Shown here one piece after another: positions 10,394-62,769 of a DNA stretch of 64,000 nucleotides; the first letter of the stretch is position 1; the number at the start of each line of letters is the position of its first letter. Under the pieces are notes generated by a model. That model worked only from the letters and a program-made list of their open reading frames with translations. It made no database searches and was not told the DNA's origin. A program made the translations under genes and the position numbers. This stretch comes from Gemmatimonadales bacterium (GTDB lineage: Bacteria > Gemmatimonadota > Gemmatimonadetes > Gemmatimonadales > GWC2-71-9). The DNA lies in the NCBI GenBank assembly GCA_040877595.1, contig JBBDNM010000026.1:78732-142731 (forward strand). Direction: 5' to 3'.

Positions 10394-10469
10394 GCTCCCT
10401 CGCGGACTCCGAGTAAGGCGAAGGTAGCGCTGCACCCATGAGGAGCGCCAGATGTCCACCGGACCCCCT

Positions 10470-10507
10470 TCGACATTCGACATTGAACATTCGACATTCG
10501 ACATTCG
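10470..10507. repeat. tandem heptamer array, about 5.4 x TCGACAT
   Basis: TCGACAT TCGACAT TGAACAT TCGACAT TCGACAT TCG. It sits 7 nt from the stop of the upstream - strand gene (10514) and 77 nt upstream of the DUF433 gene start. Confidence 0.95.
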
Positions 10508-10993: not shown

Positions 10994-11007
10994 CGCTAGG
11001 AGGAGCA

Positions 11008-11078
11008 CGGTGCATGGTACACGGTGCACGGGCCCCGAACGGTCCACCCCGTGCACGGTGCACCGTGCACCGTGCATC
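11008..11078. repeat. inverted pair of GTGCACN heptamer arrays (hairpin)
   Basis: Left arm CGGTGCATGGTACACGGTGCACGGG (11008-11032). 14-nt spacer. Right arm CCCCGTGCACGGTGCACCGTGCACCGTGCATC (11047-11078). About 22 of 25 positions are complementary. Fills the gap between the ubiE stop (11082) and the phosphoesterase start (10993). Confidence 0.9.
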
Positions 11079-36018: not shown

Positions 36019-36059
36019 AGTTCCCGTGCACGGTGCACGGTGCACAGTGCACGGGAACT
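36019..36059. repeat. 41-nt near-perfect palindrome made of 4 x GTGCAC at 7-bp spacing
   Basis: AGTTCCC GTGCACg GTGCACg GTGCACa GTGCAC GGGAACT. It overlaps the TAG stop (36058-36060) of the acyl-CoA dehydrogenase gene and lies 19 nt upstream of the EVE start. Confidence 0.95.
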
Positions 36060-48631: not shown

Positions 48632-50037
48632 ACGCCGCGCTGCAGTCCGCGCTGATCGCCCAGGTCGGTGAACGGCATGTCCGTTCCCGACCTGCGCTTT
48701 TAGCGACCTATGCGCGCGATGCGCTGCCCACGCTCGTCCGGCGTCCGGCCTTCGCCATCTTTCCCGGCTCGCGCGATGAGGTGGCCGGCGTTCTCAGGAT
48801 TCTTCACCACTACGGCGTTCCGTTCGTCGCGCGCGGGGCCGGCACCGGTCTCTCGGGCGGTGCGTTGGCCGACCGCGACGCCGCCCTGATCGTGCTGACC
48901 CGGCTCAACCGGATTCTCGAGATCGACTCCTACAACCGCTCGGCCCTGGTCGAACCCGGCCTGGTGAACGCCACGCTATCGGCGGCGGTGGCGCCCCTGG
49001 GCCTGCATTACGCCCCGGACCCTTCCAGCCAGACGGCGTGCACCCTCGGCGGCAACGTGGCCGAGAACGCCGGCGGGCCGCACTGCTTCAAGTACGGGGT
49101 GACCACCAACCACATACTCGAACTTGAGGTCGTCCTCCCCGACGGCACGGTGACCACGCTGGGGTCGCCGAGCGGCGCATCGTGGGGGCCGGACCTGGTG
49201 GGCCTGTTTGTTGGCTCTGAGGGAATGTTCGGCATCGCCACCGCTATTCGGGTTCGGCTGGTGCCCCTGCCGGGCGCCGTGCGGACGCTGCTCGCCGCCT
49301 TTCCCACGCTCCGCTCGGCCGGAGCCGCGGTTTCGGCGATCATTGAGGGAGGGATCGTGCCGGCCGCGCTCGAGATGATGGACCAGACCTGCATTCGTGT
49401 GGTCGAAGCTTCGCGCTATGCCGCAGGCTACCCGACCGATGCGGCGGCGGTCCTGATTGTCGAGCTGGACGGACCGGAGGCCGACGCCTTGGATCACCAG
49501 GTGCCGGCCGTCGAGGCCATTCTCCGGCGCGCCGGAGCCACCGAGGTACGGGTAGCAGCGGACCCTGCCGCGCGCGAGCGGCTCTGGCAGGGACGCAAGA
49601 AGGCGTTCGGGGCGCTGGGGCGCCTGAGCCCCGATCTCATGGTGCAGGACGCCGTCGTGCCTCGCACGGCATTACCGGACGTCTTGGACGCCATCAGCGC
49701 AATTGGCGAGCGACACGGTCTCACGATAGGGAACGTCTTTCATGCGGGGGACGGCAACCTGCACCCCAATATCTGCTTTGACGGGGCCGACCCCGCCGAG
49801 CGGGGCCGCGCCGAAGAGGCGATGGGGGAGATCATGGCCCTCTGCGTCGGGGCGGGTGGGACCATAACGGGGGAGCATGGTGTAGGGCTGGATAAGCTCA
49901 GGTACATGACCACCATATTCTCGCCAACGACCTTGGGCGCCATGCGCGCCGTACGGCGGGTTTTCGATGTCCAGGAGCGAGCAAACCCGGGAAAGGTTCT
50001 CCCGATACATTCCTGTCGGGAATGGGGAGGGAGGTAG
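48613..50037 (+). CDS. glcD: glycolate oxidase FAD-linked subunit GlcD (start codon unresolved)
   Basis: FVARGAGTGLSGGALA and the FAD-binding-4 fold. The in-frame translation upstream of the track start (GTG 48781) reads DAALQSALIAQVGERHVRSRPALLATYARDALPTLVRRPAFAIFPGSRDEV. This matches GlcD N-termini, but no ATG/GTG/TTG exists in frame after the stop at 48307-48309. 48613 (ATT) is a placeholder. Confidence 0.8.
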   Translation: MLGRGIDAALQSALIAQVGERHVRSRPALLATYARDALPTLVRRPAFAIFPGSRDEVAGVLRILHHYGVPFVARGAGTGLSGGALADRDAALIVLTRLNRILEIDSYNRSALVEPGLVNATLSAAVAPLGLHYAPDPSSQTACTLGGNVAENAGGPHCFKYGVTTNHILELEVVLPDGTVTTLGSPSGASWGPDLVGLFVGSEGMFGIATAIRVRLVPLPGAVRTLLAAFPTLRSAGAAVSAIIEGGIVPAALEMMDQTCIRVVEASRYAAGYPTDAAAVLIVELDGPEADALDHQVPAVEAILRRAGATEVRVAADPAARERLWQGRKKAFGALGRLSPDLMVQDAVVPRTALPDVLDAISAIGERHGLTIGNVFHAGDGNLHPNICFDGADPAERGRAEEAMGEIMALCVGAGGTITGEHGVGLDKLRYMTTIFSPTTLGAMRAVRRVFDVQERANPGKVLPIHSCREWGGR

Positions 50038-50144
50038 AAAAGATGAAAAGATGAAGAGTGGAAGAGTGGAAGAGTGGAAGAGTTGGTGGACGAGTGGAAG
50101 AGCGGAAGAGTTGGTGAAAGGGTGAAAGGGTGAAAGGGTTGGAT
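50037..50144. repeat. 108-nt array of 8-bp tandem units (GAAAAGAT x2, GAAGAGTK x4, GAAGAGCG, GAAGAGTT, GGTGAAAG x3, GGTTGGAT)
   Basis: Starts at the last base of the glcD stop codon and ends 6 nt before the four-helix-bundle gene stop. Only two C residues on the + strand. One 12-nt irregular unit, GGTGGACGAGTG. Confidence 0.95.
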
Positions 50145-50150
50145 AGGGAC

Positions 50151-50524
50151 TCATTCCAAGGATTGGCGCAGGAACCAGCAGAGCGTTCCCGCGTGGTTTC
50201 GTTGTCCGTCGAGGTCACGCCATTGATCCGGGGTGAGGTAACCGACATCCCGGGCAAGTAGTAGCCAGTTACCAACCTCATTCAATGAGGTAATTGCAAT
50301 GGACAGATACCGACGAAACTCCCGCTTGGTGGGCTTAGCGCTGCCCTCAGCGATATTGGCGCCAGCAGACGACGCTGCCCGACGCAATTGGGATGTCAGC
50401 CCTACTTCTCCGTCTCAGGAAACGAGCCTGTGACATGATAGAGCTGAACCGTCAGGGCGTGAGTTTCACCAACATTTCCACCCTTCAACTCTTCAACCCT
50501 TAGACTCTTCAAATGGAGGCCCAT
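50151..50524 (-). pseudogene. four-helix-bundle protein gene (TIGR02436/PF05635, 23S rRNA IVS protein/Avd family), frameshifted
   Basis: C-terminal frame: (V)GLTSQLRRAASSAGANIAEGSAKPTKREFRRYLSIAITSLNEVGNWLLLARDVGYL. N-terminal frame: MGLHLKSL...THALTVQLYHVTGSFPETEK, then TAG. The family motif FP..E(K/R)YGLTSQ is restored by adding one base in the TA- codon near 50403. The N-terminal 20 codons overlap the right-hand repeat array. Confidence 0.8.
50463..50518. repeat. 8-bp unit array, reverse-complement partner of the 50037-50144 array
   Basis: GTTTCACC AACATTTC CACCCTTC AACTCTTC AACCCTTA GACTCTTC AAATGGAG. AACTCTTC and GACTCTTC are reverse complements of GAAGAGTT and GAAGAGTC. GTTTCACC is the reverse complement of GGTGAAAC. 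Confidence 0.85.
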
Positions 50525-50968: not shown

Positions 50969-51736
50969 GTGCATGGCATGGCCCGACTGCTCCAGGCCGC
51001 CACCCGCGAACGGTGGCGGGTCCGGGTGGAGCACGATGCGTGGTCCCCGCTGGACGCACCGGCCGACCTGGCCGTCAGCACGCGACTGTTCGACGCTGTT
51101 CGGGACCCCTCACCCGCGGATCAGGTGGTCACGGCCGGCGCCGGCGCGCCCATCGAGGCGGTCGGTCTCCAGGCTCCCGGCACCCGTCGTACCGTCGGCA
51201 GTGCGCTCGCCGTTGGCGCCGATCACGTTCGCGATGAGGTCCTCGGGCTTACCGCAGTCACCGGCGACGGACGGATCCTTACGGTCGGTGGACGCGTCCT
51301 CAAGAATGTCGCCGGGTACGACCTGGCCAAGTTGTTCATCGGCGGGTTCGATGCGTTCGGTGTCATTGTCGAAGCACACCTCCGCCTGCGTGACCGACTA
51401 CCACTCCACGACAACCCCACCGGACCAGTCGTGCTGAGCGTCGGCGCACTGCGGACCCAGCATGACTTGGCTATCACGCTGCTCGCCGCCGAGTTGCCAC
51501 CGCACCAGACGCTCACCACGCAGGACGGCGTGCGCTGGTCGGGCACGGCGGACGCCGCCGCCCTGCGGCGCGCGCGCGCTGCCTGCGCCCGACACCACAT
51601 GCCGCTCACGCTCGAGCGCGCGCCGTGGACTGTCCGATCAACCGTGGGTGTGCACGGCTCCTTCCGCGATGGGGTCGCGCCGCTCGTGGACGGGTTGCGG
51701 CGGTCGTTTGATCCGGCCGGGGTGTTCGTTGTCTAG
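50969..51736 (+). CDS. glcE: glycolate oxidase subunit GlcE (compact, divergent)
   Basis: VRDEVLGLTAVTGDGRILTVGGRVLKNVAGYDLAKLFIGGFDAFGVIVEAHLRLR. C-terminal FDPAGVFV. Start is GTG 50969 or ATG 50978. Confidence 0.75.
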   Translation: MHGMARLLQAATRERWRVRVEHDAWSPLDAPADLAVSTRLFDAVRDPSPADQVVTAGAGAPIEAVGLQAPGTRRTVGSALAVGADHVRDEVLGLTAVTGDGRILTVGGRVLKNVAGYDLAKLFIGGFDAFGVIVEAHLRLRDRLPLHDNPTGPVVLSVGALRTQHDLAITLLAAELPPHQTLTTQDGVRWSGTADAAALRRARAACARHHMPLTLERAPWTVRSTVGVHGSFRDGVAPLVDGLRRSFDPAGVFVV

Positions 51737-52931
51737 CGGGTACGCCGGGCTGGATCCGTGCGTGCATTGCGGGTTCTGTTTGCCCGCGTGCCCGACGTAC
51801 ACCGTAACCGGCAACGAGGCGGACAGTCCGCGCGGCCGCATTGTGCTGATGCAAGGCCTGGCCCGCGGCACGCTCGCCCCGACGGACGACACCGTCGCGC
51901 ATCACCTCGACCGCTGCCTCGGGTGTCGCGCCTGCGAACCCGCGTGCCCGTCGGGCGTGCAGTACGGTACCGCCCTCGAGGCAGCCCGCACGGACATCGC
52001 GACGGCACATGGAGTGCCGTGGCGGGCGCGGCTGGTATTGTTCCTGATGGCGCATGCGCCGTTGCGCCGCGTGGTGTTCTGGTGTGCGCGGCTGGTGCGG
52101 CCGTTCCTCCCGATCCGGATGCTCCAGGCAACGACCCCATGGCGGGGGGGCGGGAAGGCGGGACGGACGCGTCTTCCCGCCTTCCCGCGTTCACGCCCTT
52201 CCGCCTTGTTCCTCGGCTGCATCCAGCGTGAACTGTTTGGTCATGTGCATGACGCCACGCGCATCACGCTGGCCGCGAACGGCTACGCGTGCACTGCGGC
52301 GAACGGCCAAGGCTGTTGTGGCGCGCTGCATGCCCATGCGGGCCGTCACGACGACGCGCGCCGCCTCGCGCGGGTCAACGTGCTGGCCTTCCGCGACACC
52401 GAAGGACCCATCGTCGTGAACAGTGCCGGCTGCGGCGCGATGCTCAAACAGTACGGTTCATTGCTTGCCGACGACCCCTTGGCCGCGGACGCACGCCGCG
52501 TAGCCGACCGTGTGCGCGACGTGATGGAGGTGCTGGCCGAAGCGGGGCCGGCGCCAGGAGGTCCGCTCGCAGTCCGCGTGGCGTACGACGCGCCGTGCCA
52601 TTTGCAGCACGCGCAGGGCGTGGTCACCGAACCCCTGGCAGTACTTGCGGCTATTCCGGGACTCAGGGTGGTACCGCACGCCGGAGCTGATCGGTGTTGC
52701 GGCAGCGCGGGATTGTACAGCCTGCTCGAGCCGGCGCTCGCGGGTGAGGTTCTGGCCGGCAAGCTGGACGCGCTGGTGGCGAGCGATGTGGATGCCGTCG
52801 CTACGGGGAACCCGGGATGTCAGATGCAGATCGGCGCCGGATTGGCTGCCCGGGGCGTCGCGACGGCGGTCTGCCACCCTGTGGAACTGCTTGCTGCGAG
52901 CTACCGGTCCCGGGGGATACATTCTCCGTGA
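51729..52931 (+). CDS. glcF: glycolate oxidase iron-sulfur subunit GlcF
   Basis: TTG at 51729 overlaps the glcE end by 8 nt. Two ferredoxin-type clusters, CVHCGFCLPACPTY and CLGCRACEPACPSG. CCG domains with CCGSAG. Confidence 0.85.
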   Translation: MSSGYAGLDPCVHCGFCLPACPTYTVTGNEADSPRGRIVLMQGLARGTLAPTDDTVAHHLDRCLGCRACEPACPSGVQYGTALEAARTDIATAHGVPWRARLVLFLMAHAPLRRVVFWCARLVRPFLPIRMLQATTPWRGGGKAGRTRLPAFPRSRPSALFLGCIQRELFGHVHDATRITLAANGYACTAANGQGCCGALHAHAGRHDDARRLARVNVLAFRDTEGPIVVNSAGCGAMLKQYGSLLADDPLAADARRVADRVRDVMEVLAEAGPAPGGPLAVRVAYDAPCHLQHAQGVVTEPLAVLAAIPGLRVVPHAGADRCCGSAGLYSLLEPALAGEVLAGKLDALVASDVDAVATGNPGCQMQIGAGLAARGVATAVCHPVELLAASYRSRGIHSP

Positions 52932-53935: not shown

Positions 53936-55110
53936 AGTGGACCGGCCCCGGGCCCGGGGCCGTGGTCGCCGCCGCGTTCATCGGACCAGGAACAGTCACC
54001 ACCGCCACCCTCGCAGGCGCACGCACCGGTAGTGCCCTGCTCTGGTGCGTCGCGTTTGCGACGGTCGCCACCATCGTGTTGCAGGAGATGGCGGCGCGGC
54101 TGGGGATCGTGACGGGTGCTGGCATTGGAGCGGGCCTCAGTCGGGCGGGCGGGAAGGCGGGAAAGGGGCTGGCTTGGCTCGCGGTCGTCTCGGTGCTGGT
54201 GGGCGTCGTGGCGTACGAGGCCGGCAACCTGACCGGCGCGGGGTTGGGCCTTGGAGCCGCCGCGGGTGTGCAGCCAAAGTACGTCGTGCTGGTCTCGGCA
54301 GTACTCGCGGGGTTGCTGCTGTGGTCGGGACGCTATCGGCTGATTGAGCGTGTGCTCGTGGTATGCGTCGCCATCATGGGGCTCGTCTTCTTTGCCACGG
54401 CCTTGATGGTGCTGCCCTCGGTGCCGGGACTGCTGCGCGGCCTCACGATTCCCTCCCTGCCTGATGGCGCCACGCTCACCGCGCTGGGCCTGGTCGGCAC
54501 GACCATCGTCCCGTACAACCTGTTCCTGCATGCCGCGGCGGTGAACGAGCGGTTCAGCGGACAGGCCGACCTGCAGGCCGTGCGTCGTGATCTCTACTGG
54601 TCGGTGGCGTTGGGCGGCGTGATTACCGCCGCGATCGTGGTCACGGCCGCGGCGGCGCTGGACGGTGCCGCCGTTCGCTCAGCGGGCGACATGGCGGGAC
54701 AGTTGGAACCGTTGCTGGGCCCTTGGGCATCGCGCGCGTTCACGCTGGGCCTGGCGGCCGCCGGGCTGTCCTCCGCGATCACCGCTCCGCTCGCCGCAGC
54801 GTACGCGCTGCTTGACCTGTTGGGTCGCGGCCGCGCCACCACGCACGTGGTTGCACGCGCGACGTTCCTGACGGCGCTGGCCGTCGGCGCGGCCATTGCC
54901 TACGTCGGCACGCGCCCGGTTCCGTTGATTCTCGCGGCGCAGGCGCTGAACGGATTGATGTTGCCGCTGGTGGCAGCGGCGCTCTTGGTGGCAATGAACT
55001 CGCGTACGTTGCTCGGTGACGCGGTCAACGGTGGGTGGCGCAACATGGCTGGTGTTGCGGTTGTGCTGTTGTGTGCGGCGCTCGGCATCCGCGCTATCGC
55101 GGCGCTCTAG
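53932..55110 (+). CDS. Nramp-family transporter with non-canonical metal-site residues
   Basis: ATGA overlap with ygfZ. FIGPGTVTTATLAG aligns to the MntH motif IDPGNFATNIQAG. LQEMAARLGIVTG. GTTIVPYNLFLHAAAV aligns to GATVMPHVIYLHS. Confidence 0.8.
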   Translation: MKWTGPGPGAVVAAAFIGPGTVTTATLAGARTGSALLWCVAFATVATIVLQEMAARLGIVTGAGIGAGLSRAGGKAGKGLAWLAVVSVLVGVVAYEAGNLTGAGLGLGAAAGVQPKYVVLVSAVLAGLLLWSGRYRLIERVLVVCVAIMGLVFFATALMVLPSVPGLLRGLTIPSLPDGATLTALGLVGTTIVPYNLFLHAAAVNERFSGQADLQAVRRDLYWSVALGGVITAAIVVTAAAALDGAAVRSAGDMAGQLEPLLGPWASRAFTLGLAAAGLSSAITAPLAAAYALLDLLGRGRATTHVVARATFLTALAVGAAIAYVGTRPVPLILAAQALNGLMLPLVAAALLVAMNSRTLLGDAVNGGWRNMAGVAVVLLCAALGIRAIAAL

Positions 55111-55118
55111 CGAGGCGC

Positions 55119-57254
55119 ATGGTACCCCGTCGAGAGTTCCTGACCAGCGCGGGCGCCGTACTCGGGGCGGTCGCATCGCGCCATCTCGCCGCGCAGATGA
55201 TACCTGCGGTCGAGGCGATTCCGACAGTATTCCATGGTCATCCGGACGGTACCCGCACGTTGATCCGCCTTGTCGTGCGGAACAGCGACGCGCCCGCCGG
55301 ACGACTGCGCGTGTACGATGAGCGCACCAACGCCCTCCTCGGCACGGCCGGCGTGATCTCGGTTGGCGACGGCCGATTGTCGGGCGAACTGTGGCTGCCG
55401 CTCGAGCGACCGCTGCGTGTGCGCACCGAACTGGAGTACCCCGGAACTCAGCGCCCGCTCCGCGATCGGTTCACGCTGACCCCCACGCCCCGCTGGACCC
55501 TGCACTGGCTGTTGCTCGCCGACCCCGCCTCGATCACCGCGACGCTCGCGACGCTCGACGCGATGTGGCGTGGCGTCCCTGTCGCTGCGTTACGCGACGT
55601 CGGCGCACAGATCGACCCCGTCCGCCATGCGGAAGCACCTACCGATCTCGCGGCCGCGCGCATCGTCTGGCCCGCGTGGATGGCCAGTCGAGCGTCGGGC
55701 CTGCCGCTCGCGCCCGTGGGCACGGCGTTGCGCGGGTTTGCCGGGCTGCCGTCCGTGTTGGCTGGCTCCGGACTGACCGGCACGGTCGGCATGCTGGATG
55801 AACCGTGGACCGTCGTGGACCAGATCCCGGCCTCGCTGGCCGACCTGCAACGCCTGGTGGAAGAACGTCTGGTGGCGAACGACGCTCCGCTCCACCGAGG
55901 CTTCGTCGTAACACCCATCCATCAGGACACCGACGGATTGGCGGCGTTGTTCGACGCGTGGCGCACGCGGTTCACCGCGCCGGTTCTCGCGGTGGGCACG
56001 GCCCCCGCCGACATGCGGACGCGCGGAATCACGATGCTTGGTGTTGCGCTACCTGGGGGCCCGGACGCGCTCGCCGAACGCGCAGCCCAGCGTCGAGACG
56101 CCCTCGAGTCGGAGGGCGATTCGCTGTTCGCCCCGTTGGCATCCCCGCTCGGCGCGTCCGGGAATGCTCGGACGGCCATCGCGAACGCCATACGCTCCGC
56201 GTACGCCGGGACCATCGTGTTCAACGCGACATCGTTCGGGCGCACCGACGTCGTGCGGGCGGGCGACGGCGAGTGGATTGCCACGGACATTCCGGGTCCA
56301 GGATATGCTGTCGTGCCAACGCCAGCGCCGATCACCTGGCCGGAACCGACGACGACCGCACCGCCGGTTATCGCCAACATCACGTGGCGTGTGCGCCTGA
56401 CCGAGCGCGGCACCATCAGTTCCCTGCTCCACCAACCAAGCGGCACGGAACTCGCGGGCACCCACGGGCTCATGGTGGCGTCGGATGCACGCGCGATGGA
56501 TATCGGCGTCACCCGCGTTCGTGCCTTCGGAGAGCGTCTCGTCGTGCGCCACGTGGCGGGCGGGTCCCGCTGGACCACAACGTTCACACTATACAACGGC
56601 CTCGATACGCTGGACGTGCAGACCGACGGTGGTCCGTGGGACCATGCGTGGCGCTTCGATGCAGCGGTGGGCGGCACGCGCACACGCTGGGCGGAGTTGC
56701 TGGGTATGGGTCAGGCGGACGGCGCGATGCACGGGGTCTCGGCGGGCGACTGGTGGGCGGCCGACGGCACCGCCGGCTCGCTCATGGTCGCCTGTCCTGA
56801 CGGTGCGGTGCTCAGTCGTGACGCCGACGGCGTGTTGCGTCACATGGGCCCATCCGGCGGACTGCGACTTCGCCTGGCGTTTGCCGGCACCGCGCTCGCG
56901 GATGATCCATGGCGGATTGGTGCGTTGGGCCATCCTTTGATCGCCCTCCCCATCCCAGGCACCGGCTCAAACGCGTTGCCAGGCTTTGGCCGCGTGCTCA
57001 ATCTGCGCGATCCCGGTACCCGTCTGGTGGGGCTGCGCCCAGCAGATGACGGCCACGGCGTCATCGCGTACTTGCACGACATCATGGGCGTGGCTCGACC
57101 AATCACTCTGCAGAGCGATCTCCATACCATCCGCACTGCGTACGCCTGCGACCTGCTGGAGCGCGATCGCGCGGTGCTCACCGTGCAGGACGGCGCAGTC
57201 ACCGTAGAACTCGTCGCCGACGGAGTGGTCGCGGTGCGATTGATACTCGGCTAG
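55119..57254 (+). CDS. large hypothetical exported protein (twin-arginine-like signal)
   Basis: MVPRREFLTSAGAVLGAVASRHLAAQ. 711 aa. No catalytic motif recognised. The C-terminal beta-sandwich-like tail is weakly reminiscent of glycoside hydrolase C-terminal domains (speculative). Confidence 0.55.
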   Translation: MVPRREFLTSAGAVLGAVASRHLAAQMIPAVEAIPTVFHGHPDGTRTLIRLVVRNSDAPAGRLRVYDERTNALLGTAGVISVGDGRLSGELWLPLERPLRVRTELEYPGTQRPLRDRFTLTPTPRWTLHWLLLADPASITATLATLDAMWRGVPVAALRDVGAQIDPVRHAEAPTDLAAARIVWPAWMASRASGLPLAPVGTALRGFAGLPSVLAGSGLTGTVGMLDEPWTVVDQIPASLADLQRLVEERLVANDAPLHRGFVVTPIHQDTDGLAALFDAWRTRFTAPVLAVGTAPADMRTRGITMLGVALPGGPDALAERAAQRRDALESEGDSLFAPLASPLGASGNARTAIANAIRSAYAGTIVFNATSFGRTDVVRAGDGEWIATDIPGPGYAVVPTPAPITWPEPTTTAPPVIANITWRVRLTERGTISSLLHQPSGTELAGTHGLMVASDARAMDIGVTRVRAFGERLVVRHVAGGSRWTTTFTLYNGLDTLDVQTDGGPWDHAWRFDAAVGGTRTRWAELLGMGQADGAMHGVSAGDWWAADGTAGSLMVACPDGAVLSRDADGVLRHMGPSGGLRLRLAFAGTALADDPWRIGALGHPLIALPIPGTGSNALPGFGRVLNLRDPGTRLVGLRPADDGHGVIAYLHDIMGVARPITLQSDLHTIRTAYACDLLERDRAVLTVQDGAVTVELVADGVVAVRLILG

Positions 57255-57286
57255 ACGGCCAAGCGGCCAGACGGCTAGTGTACGGT

Positions 57287-58756
57287 ATGCACCCGAACAC
57301 GCTCGGCGAGCTCAAGCAGTCAGATTGGGCTGACCCGAAGAAACACCTGCGCACTGTGCGCGACGAGATGCGCACCAACCTGCTCAAGCACCTGGAATCC
57401 GGGCAGGAGGTCTTCCCCGGCATCGTGGGCTATGAGGAGACGGTGGTTCCGCAGGTCGTGAACGCCGTGCTCGCGCGCCATCACTTCATTCTGCTGGGGC
57501 TGCGGGGTCAGGCCAAGAGCCGCATCCTTCGGGAACTGGTGCGCCTGCTGGACGACCAGATCCCGATCATCGCGGGATCGGAGATCAACGACAATCCGTT
57601 TGCGCCAATCTCCAAGTTCGGGCGTGCCCTCGTCGAAGAGCATGGCGACCGTACGCCGATTGCGTGGGTACCTCGTGCGCAGCGCTACGTGGAAAAGCTG
57701 GCGACCCCGGACGTGACCATCGCGGATATCATCGGCGACGTGGATCCGATCAAGGCCGCGCGCGGTGGGCACCTGCTGTCAGACGAACTGACCATTCACT
57801 ACGGACTCCTGCCCCGCGCCAACCGCGGCATCTTCGCCATCAATGAGCTGCCGGACCTGGCGGGCAAGATTCAGGTGGGGTTGTTCAACATCATGCAGGA
57901 AGGCGACATCCAGATCAAAGGCTATCCGATCCGCATGCCGCTCGATGTCCTGCTCGTGTTCTCGGCCAATCCCGAGGACTACACGGCGCGCGGCAAGATC
58001 ATCACGCCGCTCAAGGACCGGATCGGCGCCGAGATCCAGACGCACTATCCGCCGACGGTCGAGTACGGCATGGCCATCACCGCGCAGGAAGCGTGGACCG
58101 ACCGGAACGGCAAGCGGGTGCAGGTACCCGACTTTGTGCGTGAGGTGGTGGAACGGATCGCGTTTGAGGCGCGCTTCGACAAGCGGATTGATCATCGCTC
58201 CGGCGTAAGCCAGCGGTTGCCCATTTCGGTGCTGGAGACCGTCCTGTCCAACGCCGAGCGGCGCGCGGTCACGCATCGGGAAAAGGCGATCGTGCCGCGC
58301 GTGTCGGACATCTACGCCGCGTTGCCGAGTGTCACGGGCAAGATCGAGCTTGAGTATGAGGGCGAACTGCAGGGGGCGCAGGCCATCGCGGTTGATCTCA
58401 TCCGGCGCGCCTGTCGCGGCACGTTCGAGGCCCGCGCTGGTGGAGCGGACGTGGATGGCCTGGTGATGTGGTTTGATGGCGGGGCCGCGCTCAAGGTGGC
58501 CGACCAGGAGCGGACCGACCTGCTGCTCGAGGCGTTCAGCTCGGTGCCGGGCCTTTTGGACCTCGTGCGTCACACTGGGCTGGCGCCCACCAAGGATGCG
58601 GGCGCGATGGTGGCGGCCTGCGAGCTGGTGCTCGAGGGTCTGGTCGCGCAGAAGCGCATTTCACGCAACGATGAGTTGGGATACGTGATGGCACGCCGGG
58701 AGCGTGGCCCTGGGGCTGGCGGAACCGGCCTCGGTGGTCCCAACTTGTTCGCCTGA
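57287..58756 (+). CDS. AAA+ ATPase, Mg-chelatase (ChlI/BchI)/MoxR-like family
   Basis: ATG at 57287 (MHPNTLGELK); GTG at 57278 is also possible. Walker A-like LLGLRGQAKSRILREL. Walker B GIFAINELPD. LVFSANPEDYTARGKIITPLKDRIG. Confidence 0.82.
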   Translation: MHPNTLGELKQSDWADPKKHLRTVRDEMRTNLLKHLESGQEVFPGIVGYEETVVPQVVNAVLARHHFILLGLRGQAKSRILRELVRLLDDQIPIIAGSEINDNPFAPISKFGRALVEEHGDRTPIAWVPRAQRYVEKLATPDVTIADIIGDVDPIKAARGGHLLSDELTIHYGLLPRANRGIFAINELPDLAGKIQVGLFNIMQEGDIQIKGYPIRMPLDVLLVFSANPEDYTARGKIITPLKDRIGAEIQTHYPPTVEYGMAITAQEAWTDRNGKRVQVPDFVREVVERIAFEARFDKRIDHRSGVSQRLPISVLETVLSNAERRAVTHREKAIVPRVSDIYAALPSVTGKIELEYEGELQGAQAIAVDLIRRACRGTFEARAGGADVDGLVMWFDGGAALKVADQERTDLLLEAFSSVPGLLDLVRHTGLAPTKDAGAMVAACELVLEGLVAQKRISRNDELGYVMARRERGPGAGGTGLGGPNLFA

Positions 58757-59385
58757 TGTCCGTCATCACCATTTCCCGTCAGTACGGGTCCGGCGGATCC
58801 GATATCGCGAAGCTCGTGGCCAAGCGCCTGGGCTGGTCATTGATTGACAATGAGTTCGTGGACCGCGTGGCCGAGCGGGCGGGCATAGATCCGGCTGAAG
58901 TGGAGTCGAAGGAGGAGCGCGTGCCCGGATTGATTGAGCGGCTGGCGCGCGCACTGGCGATTTCGAGTCCGGAGGTGTTTGTCGCCACCGGCGCGCCCCC
59001 GGAAGCGGTGGGCCACGAAGACCGTATCATTGAGATGACCGAACGGGTTATCACCGAGGCCGTGCAACATGGGCACGTCGTGATGGTGGGACGCGGAGCG
59101 CAGGCGTATCTCGCGGAACGCGAACGCACGCTCCATGCCTACATCGTCGCCCCGCGGGCCGCGCGCATCCTGGCGGTGATGAAGCGGCTCGATATTGGTG
59201 AGGTTGAAGCGGGACGGACGCTGGACGATATCGACAAGAACCGCGAGCGGTACGTGAAGACCCACTACAACCGGCACTGGGCCCACCCTGCCAACTATCA
59301 TCTCTGCCTGAACTCAGAGGCGCTCGGATACGAGGGATGCGCAGATATCATCGTCGCGGCGACGGAGTTGCGAGAACTTCGGTAG
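58756..59385 (+). CDS. cytidylate kinase-like family protein
   Basis: TGATG overlap with the AAA+ gene. MSVITISRQYGSGGSDIAKLVAKRLGWSLIDNEF...VMVGRGA. Confidence 0.8.
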   Translation: MSVITISRQYGSGGSDIAKLVAKRLGWSLIDNEFVDRVAERAGIDPAEVESKEERVPGLIERLARALAISSPEVFVATGAPPEAVGHEDRIIEMTERVITEAVQHGHVVMVGRGAQAYLAERERTLHAYIVAPRAARILAVMKRLDIGEVEAGRTLDDIDKNRERYVKTHYNRHWAHPANYHLCLNSEALGYEGCADIIVAATELRELR

Positions 59386-59410: not shown

Positions 59411-60625
59411 CTACAGTTGCACAACCCCCGGGTGCCGACCCAAGGCAAGCCAGGCCACAACTCCCGTGGTGAGACCGCCCAAGGTCAACACCCATGTTGT
59501 CCCCACCATCTCTGCGGCTGTCCCAGCCGCGAACGCTCCAATCGGTGCCATCCCGACAAATGCCACCGTATAGACGGATACGACTCGCGCACGGAACTCA
59601 TCCGGGGCGATGGATTGAATCAGCGTATTGGTCAGTGCGGTGGCGATGATCATGGCGGCACCCATCATGGCCAACAGCACCAAGGTCAGCGGCAATGACC
59701 GCGACAACGCCACCAGAGCCACCAGCAACCCAAAAGCCGCAGTACTCCATGCCAGCACTCGGCCCTTCGGGAGTTCGTGCACGTAGAGGGCCAGCACGAG
59801 TGCACCACCCAGCGCGCCCAGTCCCACCGCCGACATCATCCAGCCAAACTCACGGGCGCCCACCTCGAGTACGCTGCGGGCGAGAACCGGCATGAGGGTC
59901 AGCACGGGGATGGACAGGATACTGGACGCCGCGATGTTGAAGACGATGCGGCGCAGCCGCGGTTCCCCGTTGACGTAGCGCAATCCCTCGACGATCCGGT
60001 TCCACGGACGGCCGGTGGCTGACGGCCGGCTGCGGTCGACGGATTTGCGAATCACCAGCATGACGCCGAGCACGGCCAGGAACGTCACGCCATTCAGTAG
60101 AAAGCAGATGCCAACGCCAAACGCACCAATCAGGACGCCGGCAATGCTCGGGCCGATGGCGCGCGTGCCGTTGAATGCCGAGGAGTTGAGCGCAATCGCA
60201 CTCGGCAGATGCTCTCGACCGACCAGATCAAAGAAGAACGAGTGGCGTGCCGGGATATCAAATGCCTGTACGATCCCCAGTCCGGCGGCGAGCAGGGCTA
60301 CGAGCGTGATGGTGGCGTTGCCGGAGTACCACATGATCGCGAACGCAAAGCCAAGCAGCATGCCGAAGGTTTGCGTGACGAACACCATGCGGTAGCGTGA
60401 CACCCGGTCGGCCACGGCACCGGCGTAGAGCGAGAACAGCAGGACGGGCAGCGTCCCGAGCGCGTCTACCAGACCGACGTAAAACGGGGAGTCCGTGAGT
60501 TCGACTACGAGCCAGGCCTGCGCGGTCCGCTGCATCCAGACGCCGATGAGCGACACCACGTACCCGACAAAGAAAATCCGGAACGCGGGGACATTCAGGG
60601 CACCGGCGCGGGCGCGTGGTGCCAT
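59411..60625 (-). CDS. MFS transporter (EntS/DUF894-like)
   Basis: 12-TM pattern. FRIFFVGYVVSLIGVWMQRTAQAWLV...GAVADRVSRYRM. Confidence 0.85.
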   Translation of the reverse strand: MAPRARAGALNVPAFRIFFVGYVVSLIGVWMQRTAQAWLVVELTDSPFYVGLVDALGTLPVLLFSLYAGAVADRVSRYRMVFVTQTFGMLLGFAFAIMWYSGNATITLVALLAAGLGIVQAFDIPARHSFFFDLVGREHLPSAIALNSSAFNGTRAIGPSIAGVLIGAFGVGICFLLNGVTFLAVLGVMLVIRKSVDRSRPSATGRPWNRIVEGLRYVNGEPRLRRIVFNIAASSILSIPVLTLMPVLARSVLEVGAREFGWMMSAVGLGALGGALVLALYVHELPKGRVLAWSTAAFGLLVALVALSRSLPLTLVLLAMMGAAMIIATALTNTLIQSIAPDEFRARVVSVYTVAFVGMAPIGAFAAGTAAEMVGTTWVLTLGGLTTGVVAWLALGRHPGVVQL

Positions 60626-61029
60626 CAGGTCACGATCTCGAGCGGTGCGCCGCCGACCTGGACCGCAGCAAAGTCCCGGCGGTCGAACGTCAGGATGCGA
60701 CGGAGTTGGAGTGTCTCGGCAAGCACCAGGAGGGTGGCATCGGCGTAATCAGTTCCAAACTGTCGCATCAGCCGGCTCGCCGCACGCTGGTCCGGGGGGT
60801 CCAGCCCGCGAATCGGGACGCCGGCATCCAGCAACGCCTCGACGACCACCCACGGTTCGACTCCGCCCCGGCGCACGAGGTGGGTGGCCTCGGTCACCAC
60901 CGCCTCTGATGTCACGCAGTGGCCGATGTAGCGGGTGAGGAGGTCCAGACTGCGCGCATGCTGGTGATCGTTACGAGCCAGCGCCGCCACCAGCGGCCCG
61001 GTGTCGAGAAGCACCGTGCCGGGGGACAC
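60625..61029 (-). CDS. PIN-domain ribonuclease toxin (VapC-like)
   Basis: GTG at 61029, 2 nt after the antitoxin stop. VLLDTGPLVA...SEAVVTEA...YADATLLVLAE...ILTFDRRDF, with the acidic PIN residues D, E, D, D. Its stop overlaps the MFS ATG by 1 nt. The track ORF upstream part reads through the heptamer hairpin. Confidence 0.8.
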   Translation of the reverse strand: MSPGTVLLDTGPLVAALARNDHQHARSLDLLTRYIGHCVTSEAVVTEATHLVRRGGVEPWVVVEALLDAGVPIRGLDPPDQRAASRLMRQFGTDYADATLLVLAETLQLRRILTFDRRDFAAVQVGGAPLEIVT

Positions 61030-61030
61030 G

Positions 61031-61285
61031 CTACTCGCGCCAGTTGTGACGATAGATCTGGTCGGCGATGGGATCGTTGCGAATCGCGTCATAGTCGAGG
61101 CTGACCGAGCCCAGGTACGGCGCGAGGCGTTCGGCCGCGCGCGACCGATCAACGGCCGGGCTCGCGAGGTAGGCCTCGATGGCCTCACGGACCACGGCAC
61201 CGCGGGCGACCCCGCGCGCCTTGGCCAGCTTCCGGATGGCCTTGGCGAGGTCGGCGGGGAGGCGGAGGGACAGTTGTTCGGACAT
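61031..61285 (-). CDS. ribbon-helix-helix (CopG/VapB-like) antitoxin
   Basis: MSEQLSLRLPADLAKAIRKLAKARGVARGAVVREAIEAYL is a beta-strand plus two helices, the RHH fold. Confidence 0.8.
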   Translation of the reverse strand: MSEQLSLRLPADLAKAIRKLAKARGVARGAVVREAIEAYLASPAVDRSRAAERLAPYLGSVSLDYDAIRNDPIADQIYRHNWRE

Positions 61286-61290
61286 GCGTC

Positions 61291-61319
61291 AATGTAGTAC
61301 AGATGCATTACATGTGCAA
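61291..61319 (-). promoter_or_regulatory. candidate promoter/operator of the RHH-PIN-MFS unit (near-leaderless)
   Basis: The - strand reads TTGCAC, a 17-nt spacer, TACATT, gacgc, then ATG. The spacer and flanks contain palindromes TGTAgTACA (61293-61301), ATGCAT (61303-61308) and ACATGT (61310-61315), which are plausible RHH operators. Confidence 0.45.
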
Positions 61320-61324
61320 TATAG

Positions 61325-61398
61325 GGCGTGCGTAGTGCGTAGTGCGTGGTGCGTGGATATTCCGTTCTACGCACTACGCACCACGCACCACGCACGCC
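61325..61398. repeat. inverted pair of GTGCGTR heptamer arrays (32-nt arms, 10-nt loop)
   Basis: Left arm GGCGTGCGTA GTGCGTA GTGCGTG GTGCGTGG (61325-61356). Loop atattccgtt. Right arm CTACGCA CTACGCA CCACGCA CCACGCACGCC (61367-61398). 28 of 32 positions are complementary. Confidence 0.95.
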
Positions 61399-61440
61399 GT
61401 TCATCATTGCCTGATCCCTCCCTCCTGGTCACCTTCCGGC

Positions 61441-62769
61441 ATGGGTTTCCACACCTACGGCAAGTACATCCCGCGCTTGGCCGACGCGGTGAATCTCCAG
61501 GATCTGCTCGAGCAGCTGGGGGATTTCCTGTTGCAATCCGGCTTTGCCGGCGGGCCGTCGTGGCATCCGTACTGGGGGGAGTTTGGCGACGAGGACACGC
61601 GGTCCATGGACGCGTTGCGGCAGGCTATCCTCCAGGCGCTCAAGGACTCGGGCAAACTCACGCCCGAGATGTTGCAGGTGCTGCGCGGCGATACTACCGG
61701 CGATCCGAACCGTGATGCGCAGATCCAGGCTGAGCTGGCGGAGCTGCTGGATGAAATCGTCAAGCGGCTGATGGAGGAAGGATATCTCACGGCCGAGCAG
61801 GCGCCGCAGATGCCGGGCGGCCAACAGGGCATGTTCGGACCGGACGGTCAGGCGCGGGCGGCGAGTCAGGACGTCAACTTCGGAATTACGACCAAGGCGG
61901 TGGACTTCCTGGGCTACCGCTCGCTCAAGAGCCTGATCGGCGCCGTGGGCAAGTCAAGCTTCGGGAGCCACGACACCGCACACCTGAGCACGGGAATCGA
62001 GGCGGAGGCGGCGTCGAAGCAGTACGAATTTGGCGATGTGATGAACCTCGATGTACCGGAGACGCTCAAACGGACGTTGATGCGTGGACGCGGGGACGCG
62101 GGGACGCGAACGGGCAACAGCGAATCTGATCCGTTTCTCGATATCGACTATCCCGACTTGATGGTGCACCAATCTGAGTATCGGTCGTCGGCCGCAACGG
62201 TACTGATGCTCGACTGCTCGCACTCGATGATCCTGTACGGCGAAGACCGCTTCACGCCGGCCAAGAAGGTGGCGTTGGCTCTGACGCACCTGATCCGCAC
62301 GCAGTTCCCGGGCGACACGCTCAACGTGGTGCTGTTTCATGACGGCGCCGAGGAAATTCCGCTGGGCAAGCTGGCCGACGTGCAGGTGGGGCCATATCAC
62401 ACCAACACGGCCGAAGGCCTCAAGCTCGCGCGCCGCATCCTCCTGGCGCAGAAGAAGGACATGCGGCAGATCATCATGATCACGGACGGCAAGCCGTCCG
62501 CCCTCACGCTGCCGGACGGCCGGATCTATATCAATTCTGCCGCCCTGGACCCGCGCATCCTGCGCGCGACTTATCGCGAGGTCTCCGCCTGCCGCCGGGC
62601 GGGGATTCTGATCAACACGTTCATGCTGGCGCGGGAGCGGAGTCTGGTCGAGTTCGTCAAGCGGGTGTGCGAGATCGCGAAGGGGAAGGCCTACTTCACG
62701 TCCACGATGACGCTGGGGCAGTACATCCTGATGGATTTCATGAGGCGGAAGACGAGGCGGGTGGGGTAG
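61441..62769 (+). CDS. von Willebrand factor A (vWA) domain protein, probable partner of the AAA+ ATPase at 57287
   Basis: ATG at 61441 ([17 protein letters not shown]...). MIDAS motif LMLDCSHSM and [11 protein letters not shown]. The track ORF start at 61342 lies inside the repeat hairpin. Confidence 0.82.

Follow-up and report, generated by a model that had tools for sequence, protein, structure and literature searches.

Why should a hairpin made of heptanucleotide repeats stand between two divergent genes, and does it do anything there? This question is raised by positions 61325 to 61398 of the 64,000-nt stretch of Gemmatimonadales DNA analysed here (hereafter, the window), where two convergent arrays of GTGCGTR units separate a vapB-like antitoxin gene from a gene encoding a vWA-domain protein. 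We found that this hairpin belongs to an abundant, fast-changing class of simple sequence repeat (SSR) hairpins of this Gemmatimonadales lineage. The reading that we favour, with a probability of roughly 60%, is that it is a recently formed inverted pair of heptanucleotide SSRs, shaped by slippage within each arm and by concerted evolution at the DNA level in a spacer that tolerates it. A sequence-specific function of the hairpin is unlikely.

Structure of the hairpin

The hairpin spans 74 nt and carries four plus four GTGCGTR heptamers, in tandem within each arm. Its parts are:

61325..61357, left arm: GGC, then GTGCGTA GTGCGTA GTGCGTG GTGCGTG, then GA(T)
61358..61365, loop: ATTCCGTT
61366..61398, right arm: (T)C, then TACGCAC TACGCAC CACGCAC CACGCAC, then GCC; position 61375 is C in strain L207

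A repeat finder returned arms of 33 nt each, 88% complementary (29 of the 33 positions pair) and with 8 nt between them, and counted 3.9 copies per arm at a 95% match, which confirmed the heptamer register. The initial annotation, made from the letters of this DNA, had described 32-nt arms of four heptamers around a 10-nt loop, which is the identical structure minus one A-T pair. It had also noticed that the unpaired positions coincide with the variable A/G position of the unit, and indeed every one of the four non-Watson-Crick oppositions falls on the seventh position, with A-type units facing G-type units. Two of them are A.C (61334/61389 and 61341/61382) and two are G.T (61348/61375 and 61355/61368), so an RNA of either strand would have two wobble pairs and two true mismatches. 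The units run A,A,G,G in the left arm and G,G,A,A in the right arm when read on its own strand, an order that alone is not statistically remarkable (chance of about 1 in 10-20). A Z-DNA reading was set aside: GTGCGT alternates purines and pyrimidines, but other units of the hairpin class do not.

The stable stem for which the initial annotation had proposed RNAfold as a check was recovered in every fold: the plus strand reached -75.5 kcal/mol as RNA (z = -7.3) and the minus strand -70.4 kcal/mol (z = -6.4), with no shuffle as stable in either case, and the single-stranded DNA reached -35.8 kcal/mol (z = -8.0; 0 of 200 shuffles as stable). The pattern GTGCGTRGTGCGT matched six times in the window, every time within the hairpin, against 0.57 matches expected. 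We conclude that the hairpin is real and not a product of chance. It has the features of an inverted heptanucleotide SSR pair, namely at least three head-to-tail 7-nt units with a complementary, convergent array nearby, a heptamer excess in the lineage (735 kb of window and relatives) and variation at a conserved position between relatives. On the other hand, the GTGCGTR unit contains no G-runs, whereas a G-quadruplex former would have G-tracts of at least three in each unit. The perfect 15-nt sub-repeats might also be read as a pseudoknot or in a slipped register, but this was discarded as sterically implausible, because the connecting loops would be of zero length.

Age of the hairpin

We next compared the spacer with that of strains and relatives. 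A Logan contig that is 99.95% identical over 6 kb (L121) carries the identical hairpin. In the metagenome-assembled genome (MAG) GCA_040899675.1 (L207, 99.35% identical) the hairpin has equal length and differs solely by one unit change in the right arm, TACGCAC to CACGCAC at 61375, which the left arm does not mirror. The contig of a third MAG (L208, 97.7% identical) begins inside the loop, and its right arm is identical. The presence of the hairpin in three further assemblies (97.7-99.95% identical) indicates that it is not an assembly artefact, and the L208 contig start suggests that such hairpins break short-read assemblies.

Relatives beyond strain level were found through VapB homologues (L202-L205). 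Two loci, L202 (with its short duplicate L203) and L204, encode vWA proteins that are 84-87% and VapB proteins that are 83-89% identical, and share the layout of the window, with vWA diverging from vapB-vapC-MFS, but no repeat hairpin is present in the 103-111 nt spacers of L202, L203 and L204. The loop context GGATATTCCGTTCTA occurs only in strain-level relatives among the loci compared. The hairpin is young, being confined to strains at least 97.7% identical among the relatives compared. Since relatives that bear vapBC lack it, the hairpin is younger than the vapBC insertion described below and not a scar of its junction. The initial annotation had taken it for a marker of the edge of the insert, an idea that is not supported by L202, L203 and L204, which share the insertion without the hairpin. 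The same annotation would have given up its proposal if the element were missing from relatives of unchanged gene order and had no other copy; it is in fact absent from relatives of that kind and does not recur in the window, which tells in part against that proposal.

The fourth of these relatives, L205, whose VapB is 95% identical, has a different hairpin at the homologous spot, directly beyond a conserved GCAATAT block. It is made of GGCGGGAA octamers:

L205 spacer hairpin: GGCGGGAT GGCGGGAA GGCGGGAA ... CCTCCCGCC CGCCCGCC TTGCCGCC

Two unrelated hairpins at one spot in close relatives is what would be expected if a non-autonomous mobile element, such as a miniature inverted-repeat transposable element (MITE), a repetitive extragenic palindromic (REP) element or a Rickettsia palindromic element (RPE), had entered a hotspot between the promoters, with L205 holding a different family member. 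The GGCGGGAA unit recurs in the window at 54148-54163 and at 52141-52207, where it forms an in-frame octamer hairpin in the Fer4-CCG inter-domain linker of a GlcF-like open reading frame (ORF; 51462-52931), and unit types are shared within genomes. RPEs are known to insert in frame into protein-coding genes (review PMC10969869) and, like them, the class studied here comprises short hairpin repeats in intergenic DNA and in frame (Kgd and GlcF linkers). However, RPE, MITE and REP elements have a conserved full-length sequence, whereas here only the short unit is shared, the stems consist of tandem units, and copies of the same unit differ in their loops and unit numbers. The unit pattern does not recur elsewhere in the window, nor does the loop beyond strain-level relatives in the loci compared, and no target-site duplication or distinct terminal repeats were seen at the flanks of the hairpin. 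Altogether we regard a mobile element as decidedly unlikely.

Repeat arrays of other kinds were observed in the divergent MFS-vWA spacer of relatives that lack vapBC (L201:5898-5997, L193:5893-5998, L199:1247-1381, L123, L125, L132 and L177). They include CCCTAGW x14 reaching the vWA ATG, inverted pairs of GTCGGGA and of GTCGCGA that bracket the core promoter, and the further octamers GGGCGGNA, TCCGCCGG and GGGGACGG.

Putative promoters on both sides of the hairpin

Conserved promoter-like motifs lie between the hairpin and each start codon:

61314..61319, minus strand: putative vapB -35 box TTGCAC, within a conserved GCAA(T) block and followed after 17 nt by TACATT; the hairpin is 5 nt away
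61291..61296, minus strand: putative vapB -10 box TACATT, drawn from conservation; 5 nt before the ATG
61407..61435, plus strand: putative vWA promoter, TTGCCT at 61407-61412, a 17-nt spacer and CACCTT at 61430-61435; a further 5 nt lead to the ATG

On the vapB side, all the relatives compared have on the minus strand TTGCNC, 17 nt and TACAYT, followed by 5-9 nt to the ATG. The vWA gene is preceded, at a conserved position, by TTGCCN-17 nt-CA(C/G)(C/T)(T/A)T in four lineages (the window, L205, L202 and L204), while relatives without vapBC have a related ATTGCSGGAA motif 35-45 nt before the vWA ATG. The hairpin thus lies within an 87-nt spacer between back-to-back putative -35 boxes, and the position of the motifs between it and each ATG implies that both mRNAs would be leaderless or nearly so. 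This suggests that the vWA mRNA starts after 61398 and lacks the stem, and the hairpin is probably in neither the vWA nor the vapB mRNA. The initial annotation had instead pictured it as a stable 5' stem of the vWA transcript, which does not fit a promoter-like motif, and hence a predicted start, downstream of the hairpin (61407-61435).

For the same reason we consider it extremely unlikely that the hairpin is an RNA element, whether a leader stem on the vWA or vapB mRNA or a terminator or insulator for read-through transcripts. Its very stable RNA folds on both strands would suit such a role, yet no Rfam family reached its gathering score in the window, where only sub-threshold look-alikes of miRNA hairpins appeared (the best being mir-1419, with 33.5 bits against a threshold of 62). 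Furthermore, there is no T/U tract as in an intrinsic terminator and no terminator call in the scan, both flanking genes point away, and the mismatches are symmetric (two G.T, two A.C) in a class with no preference for G.U on the sense strand.

The vapB promoter has repeats of its own. The spacer between its boxes (61297-61313) contains the operator-like repeats TGTAATGCAT and TGTACTACAT, and the motif TGTA(A/G)TGC is repeated at a distance of about 10-11 nt in the vapB promoter region, both in the window (61286-61319) and in L202-L206. These repeats are the likely VapB operator. They also bear on the idea that the hairpin is itself an array of heptads, bound as an operator or a decoy by VapB dimers beside their own promoter. 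VapB is a ribbon-helix-helix (RHH) protein, its gene starts 40 nt from the hairpin, and GTAGTGC, a register of the hairpin unit, is the core of the half-site TGTA(A/G)TGC conserved in the vapB promoter of relatives. The N-terminal beta-strand of RHH proteins reads DNA. Residues 1-26 of VapB are the same in the window and in P0001/L205 and almost the same in P0002-P0004, but in L205 the site is filled by GGCGGGAA octamers, and in L202 and L204 it carries no array. The precedent is the omega2 repressor of pSM19035, an RHH protein from an operon linked to a toxin-antitoxin system, whose binding sites are arrays of 7-bp heptads, direct as well as inverted (PMC4627068). Both cases have 7-bp units in both orientations, next to the promoter of a toxin-antitoxin-associated RHH gene; but omega2 heptads adjoin one another within the promoter and are conserved along with their protein, whereas here the units are split by a 10-nt loop, stand 5 nt upstream of the inferred -35 box, and have been replaced or are missing in relatives whose VapB has the same DNA-reading head. 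Better candidates for the operator are the conserved palindromes within the core promoter. Heptamer hairpins are also common where there is no RHH gene, and no homologue of this RHH or PIN protein was found near 120 listed GTGCGTR arrays, although this last is a weak test. We therefore rate binding by VapB as highly unlikely.

A selected DNA structure, either a cruciform formed under the negative supercoiling of divergent transcription or a spacer or insulator tuning vapBC and vWA, is also unlikely in our opinion. The hairpin does lie exactly between the two inferred -35 boxes, its single-stranded DNA fold is stable, its mismatches are strand-symmetric as would fit a role at the DNA level, and other repeat hairpins occur in the homologous divergent spacer of L205, L123, L132, L193, L199 and L201. 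However, L202 and L204 keep the same two promoters, their -35 boxes 24-40 nt apart, without a hairpin, similar hairpins sit in coding linkers and convergent gaps, where such a role would be senseless, and the enrichment in divergent spacers is confounded, every locus having been chosen to include that spacer. In the reading that we favour instead, the hairpin has no sequence-specific role and at most adds spacing or cruciform potential between both promoters.

A class of repeat hairpins in the lineage

To place the hairpin among its like, we surveyed the window and 80 related loci (735 kb) with the tandem repeat finder TRF, retaining arrays of at least three copies. Gene contexts were assigned with a codon-model gene caller, which replaced a filtering of ORFs by third-position GC content (GC3) that was too noisy. 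Arrays of period 7 numbered 86, against three in shuffled sequence, while periods 6, 8 and 9 gave 14, 11 and 15. An inverted partner of the same unit lay within 150 nt of 46 of the 62 unique heptamer arrays (74%), but of none in control windows 500-650 nt away and of none of the 15 period-9 arrays. A typical hairpin of the class has 3-5 units per arm and a loop of about 8-50 nt, and folds as RNA at about -35 to -100 kcal/mol. There are dozens of unit types in the lineage (GGGAGAC, GCGGGAT, GATTGCG, GTGCACG and others), and unit variants stand in scrambled order between the arms of other hairpins as well. The hairpins occupy convergent gaps (for example between a kinase-like gene and an MFS gene), tandem gaps and divergent spacers, and the largest group lies inside an ORF of about 1200 aa. 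Two further heptamer elements of the window are:

11003-11076: GGTGCAC/CCGTGCA hairpin, -50.6 kcal/mol as RNA; fills the gap from the stop of a ubiE-like gene (11082) to the start of a metallophosphoesterase gene (~10994), both on the minus strand
36020-36058: self-complementary GTGCACG x4, bracketed by GTTCCC/GGGAAC; between the stop of an acyl-CoA dehydrogenase gene (36058) and an EVE-domain gene

The second of these is directly upstream of the GAGGAG ribosome-binding site of the EVE-domain gene. Not every repeat of the window conforms to this architecture. At 10469-10507, TTCGACA x5.6 forms a direct array without an inverted partner; it directly follows a gene stop, and an HTH_66/DUF433 gene lies about 75 nt downstream of it. 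A small ORF of the 23S_rRNA_IVP family (four-helix bundle; 50151-50387, minus strand), downstream of a GlcD-like gene, is flanked at 50037-50142 and 50476-50512 by long octamer arrays (GAAAAGAT, GAAGAGTG, GGTGAAAG) with an inverted counterpart, and resembles an inserted cassette with repeat arms as borders.

The 1200-aa ORF encodes a Kgd-like 2-oxoglutarate dehydrogenase, and its hairpins lie, in frame, exactly within both of the linkers (~aa 56-84, ~aa 318-345) that separate the 2-oxogl_dehyd_N, acyltransferase and E1_dh domains:

L151:7461-7545 and L151:8248-8328: Kgd-linker hairpins; also in L139, L141, L159-L165, L175, L178, L191, L200 and others

About 25 relatives keep hairpins at both sites. 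Their units vary (GGGAGAC, GCGGGAT, GGAGCAG, GTGCGC, GAGCGGT), and the arms are complementary each time. The two linker hairpins of one genome differed on average by 1.26 positions per unit, against 2.1-2.3 between genomes (permutation p < 1e-4), and this closer likeness within a genome than between orthologous sites points to concerted evolution. Across 36 class hairpins on coding strands, non-Watson-Crick oppositions were G.T in 25 cases and A.C in 38, as obtained with a strand-symmetric count along the main diagonal of the stem; this count replaced an earlier RNAfold-based test of G.U against A.C that was confounded by register shifts in the repeat stems. Under selection as RNA the sense strand would be expected to tolerate G.U and to avoid A.C, which it does not, and complementarity appears to be kept at the DNA level.

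Arrays of the same unit beyond the lineage

We also scanned one genome per species for an exact pattern of three GTGCGTR units. At least 120 loci were found, in Chloroflexota, Gemmatimonadota, Planctomycetota, Verrucomicrobiota, Actinomycetota and other phyla, against a chance expectation of only a handful of matches. Among the matches listed, 24 of 120 had an inverted partner within 120 nt, compared with 1 of 213 control windows, and many adjoined arrays of other heptamers. No detectable homologue of this VapB or VapC is encoded at these 120 listed loci, which is a weak test, and a BLAST search with the window matched none of them.

Comparison with known heptanucleotide repeats

Heptanucleotide repeats are the most abundant class of long SSR in many bacteria, and slippage tied to the polymerase footprint has been proposed for them (Mrazek et al., 2007, as related in PMC4679880 and PMC4692102). 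Named cases are the cyanobacterial short tandemly repeated repetitive (STRR) sequences and GGGGAYT, TAACTGA of the Beggiatoaceae, GGGACCG of Geobacter and GGGAATC of Xanthomonas. The repeats described here agree with prokaryotic heptanucleotide SSRs in their 7-nt unit, their few to a dozen copies, their mostly non-coding location and their excess over other periods. However, those are mainly described as direct arrays, many of them shortly before a start codon (in Beggiatoa 169 sets are direct and one is indirect, and Nostoc has few pairs), whereas the inverted-pair hairpin is the rule here.

The closest known case is that of the inverted GGGAATC pairs of Xanthomonas, in which the architecture has already been described, for another phylum and a single unit. 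Xanthomonas campestris and X. axonopodis have 70-75 convergent pairs among about 186 arrays (Rehm et al., 2015, PMC4692102), whose position and pair type are conserved between the species while lengths vary, and which have been read mainly as G-quadruplex formers (PMC4692102). As in Xanthomonas, tandem heptamers face a complementary convergent array, mostly in intergenic DNA (about 75% of arrays are paired there, and 46 of 62 here), and relatives share the position and type of a pair but differ in its length and sequence. Unlike in Xanthomonas, where one G-rich unit is used genome-wide, here the GTGCGTR unit has no G runs, the lineage has dozens of unit types, units turn over between orthologous sites, and many hairpins are in frame in coding linkers. 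In the literature we found no description of such repeat hairpins in Gemmatimonadota.

How the hairpin may have formed

In the reading that we favour, slipped-strand mispairing within each arm would duplicate, delete and homogenize neighbouring units, and hairpin-templated strand switching or gene conversion would keep both arms, and nearby hairpins, on one unit. The process would act at the DNA level wherever extra DNA is tolerated, as in promoter-free spacers, intergenic gaps and inter-domain linkers. Slippage within the arms would explain the AA-GG/TT-CC blocks as well as the single-arm change of L207, and the A,A,G,G against G,G,A,A order could have arisen, for example, through independent two-unit deletions in a longer palindrome. 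The initial annotation had already proposed that the arms diversified or were homogenized independently, in concordance with the L207 change and with the scrambled order of variants between the arms of other class hairpins.

Several points weigh against this reading. The right arm has four units in all four strains across 2.3% divergence, although unit number is expected to vary in an SSR. L205 has another hairpin at the homologous spot, and hairpins persist at fixed linker positions of Kgd in about 25 relatives, both of which could mean selection or targeted insertion instead of passive tolerance. In the register GTAGTGC, the hairpin unit equals the core of TGTAGTGC, an operator-like half-site in L204 and L205, so that the array could have been seeded by it, could offer decoy sites, or could match it by chance. 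Template switching between the arms is a hypothetical step. The promoters rest on weak conserved motifs, neither of them having been called by a strict sigma-70 consensus scan. Finally, the related loci are partly redundant metagenome contigs, and the gene caller was home-made, although it reproduced Pfam-confirmed genes.

A bolder generalization, which we hold only tentatively, is that inverted heptamer arrays are self-maintaining DNA hairpin elements and not passive microsatellites, in Gemmatimonadales and Xanthomonas and, as hinted, in Chloroflexota, Planctomycetota, Verrucomicrobiota and Actinomycetota. Equally tentatively, such elements would hold fixed positions for a long time, including in-frame Kgd linkers, while their stems are rewritten in concert in each genome.

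Gene setting and the vapBC insertion

The genes around the hairpin are:

58756-59385, plus strand: cytidylate-kinase-like gene (Pfam)
59411-60625, minus strand: MFS_3 transporter gene (Pfam)
60625-61029, minus strand: vapC-like PIN toxin gene (gene call; Pfam PIN, E = 7.7e-14)
61031-61285, minus strand: vapB-like RHH antitoxin gene, 84 aa (Pfam RHH_1, E = 1.4e-9)
61441-62769, plus strand: vWA-domain gene (VWA_2), 442 aa (Pfam; NCBI MEX0690912.1, from a Gemmatimonadales MAG)

The start codons at 61441 (vWA, plus strand) and 61285 (vapB, minus strand) agree with the distances from the hairpin given by the initial annotation. In 80 metagenome loci with relatives of the vWA protein (70-78% identity) the order is upstream ORF, 'AAA', cytidylate-kinase-like gene, MFS (minus) and vWA (plus) wherever the contig reaches, and none of these loci has a PIN or RHH match. 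This conserved order without PIN or RHH indicates that the MFS gene is ancestral there and that only vapBC was inserted. Of the toxin-antitoxin/MFS insert that the initial annotation had proposed, vapBC is therefore extra, as claimed, while the MFS gene is part of the conserved gene order.

The 492-aa protein encoded at 57278-58756, which had been named as the AAA+ partner of the vWA protein, has no Pfam match at E <= 1e-3. The pair that it forms with the vWA protein is conserved where the contigs of relatives reach, with the kinase-like gene and the MFS gene in between. Just before it, at 57248-57275, the octamers GGCTAGAC GGCCAAGC GGCCAGAC GGCTAGTG run across the stop of the upstream ORF (57254) and make up most of the gap of about 23-32 nt before the 'AAA' start. 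The vWA protein has a precomputed match to PF27098 (Rv0959_3rd), and an array of GCGGGGAC x3.4 lies within its coding sequence (62082-62108). The hairpin of Kgd linker 1 in L207 (L207:6350-6700) has the unit GCGTGGAC, similar to GCGGGGAC, another case of unit sharing within a genome.

A minus-strand ORF of 260 aa (60625-61407), which spans the hairpin and overlaps vapBC in a different frame, was judged spurious, as it is not conserved in L202, L204 and L205. On the minus strand of 61402-61426 the Shine-Dalgarno-like GGAGGGAGGGA stands 8 nt before the ATGATG that opens this ORF. A scan for tRNA and tmRNA genes found none.

Significance of the hairpin class

Taken alone, this hairpin is an ordinary element, probably of little consequence for vapBC or vWA, and its value is that of a clean, datable example of the process; the interesting part is the behaviour of the class. 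In practical terms, such hairpins appear to break assemblies, mimic miRNA-like or terminator-like structures and may sit inside genuine ORFs, all of which concerns annotation. That 7-nt repeats are in excess in bacteria has been recognized since 2007, and the data from this lineage suggest a link to hairpin formation, for which the vapB/vWA spacer and the Kgd linkers are concrete test loci. If inverted heptamer arrays do maintain themselves, a dedicated process would be needed, for instance repair or gene conversion templated by the hairpin, or an unknown factor acting in trans, and the long-unexplained heptanucleotide excess of bacteria would be tied to hairpin architecture.

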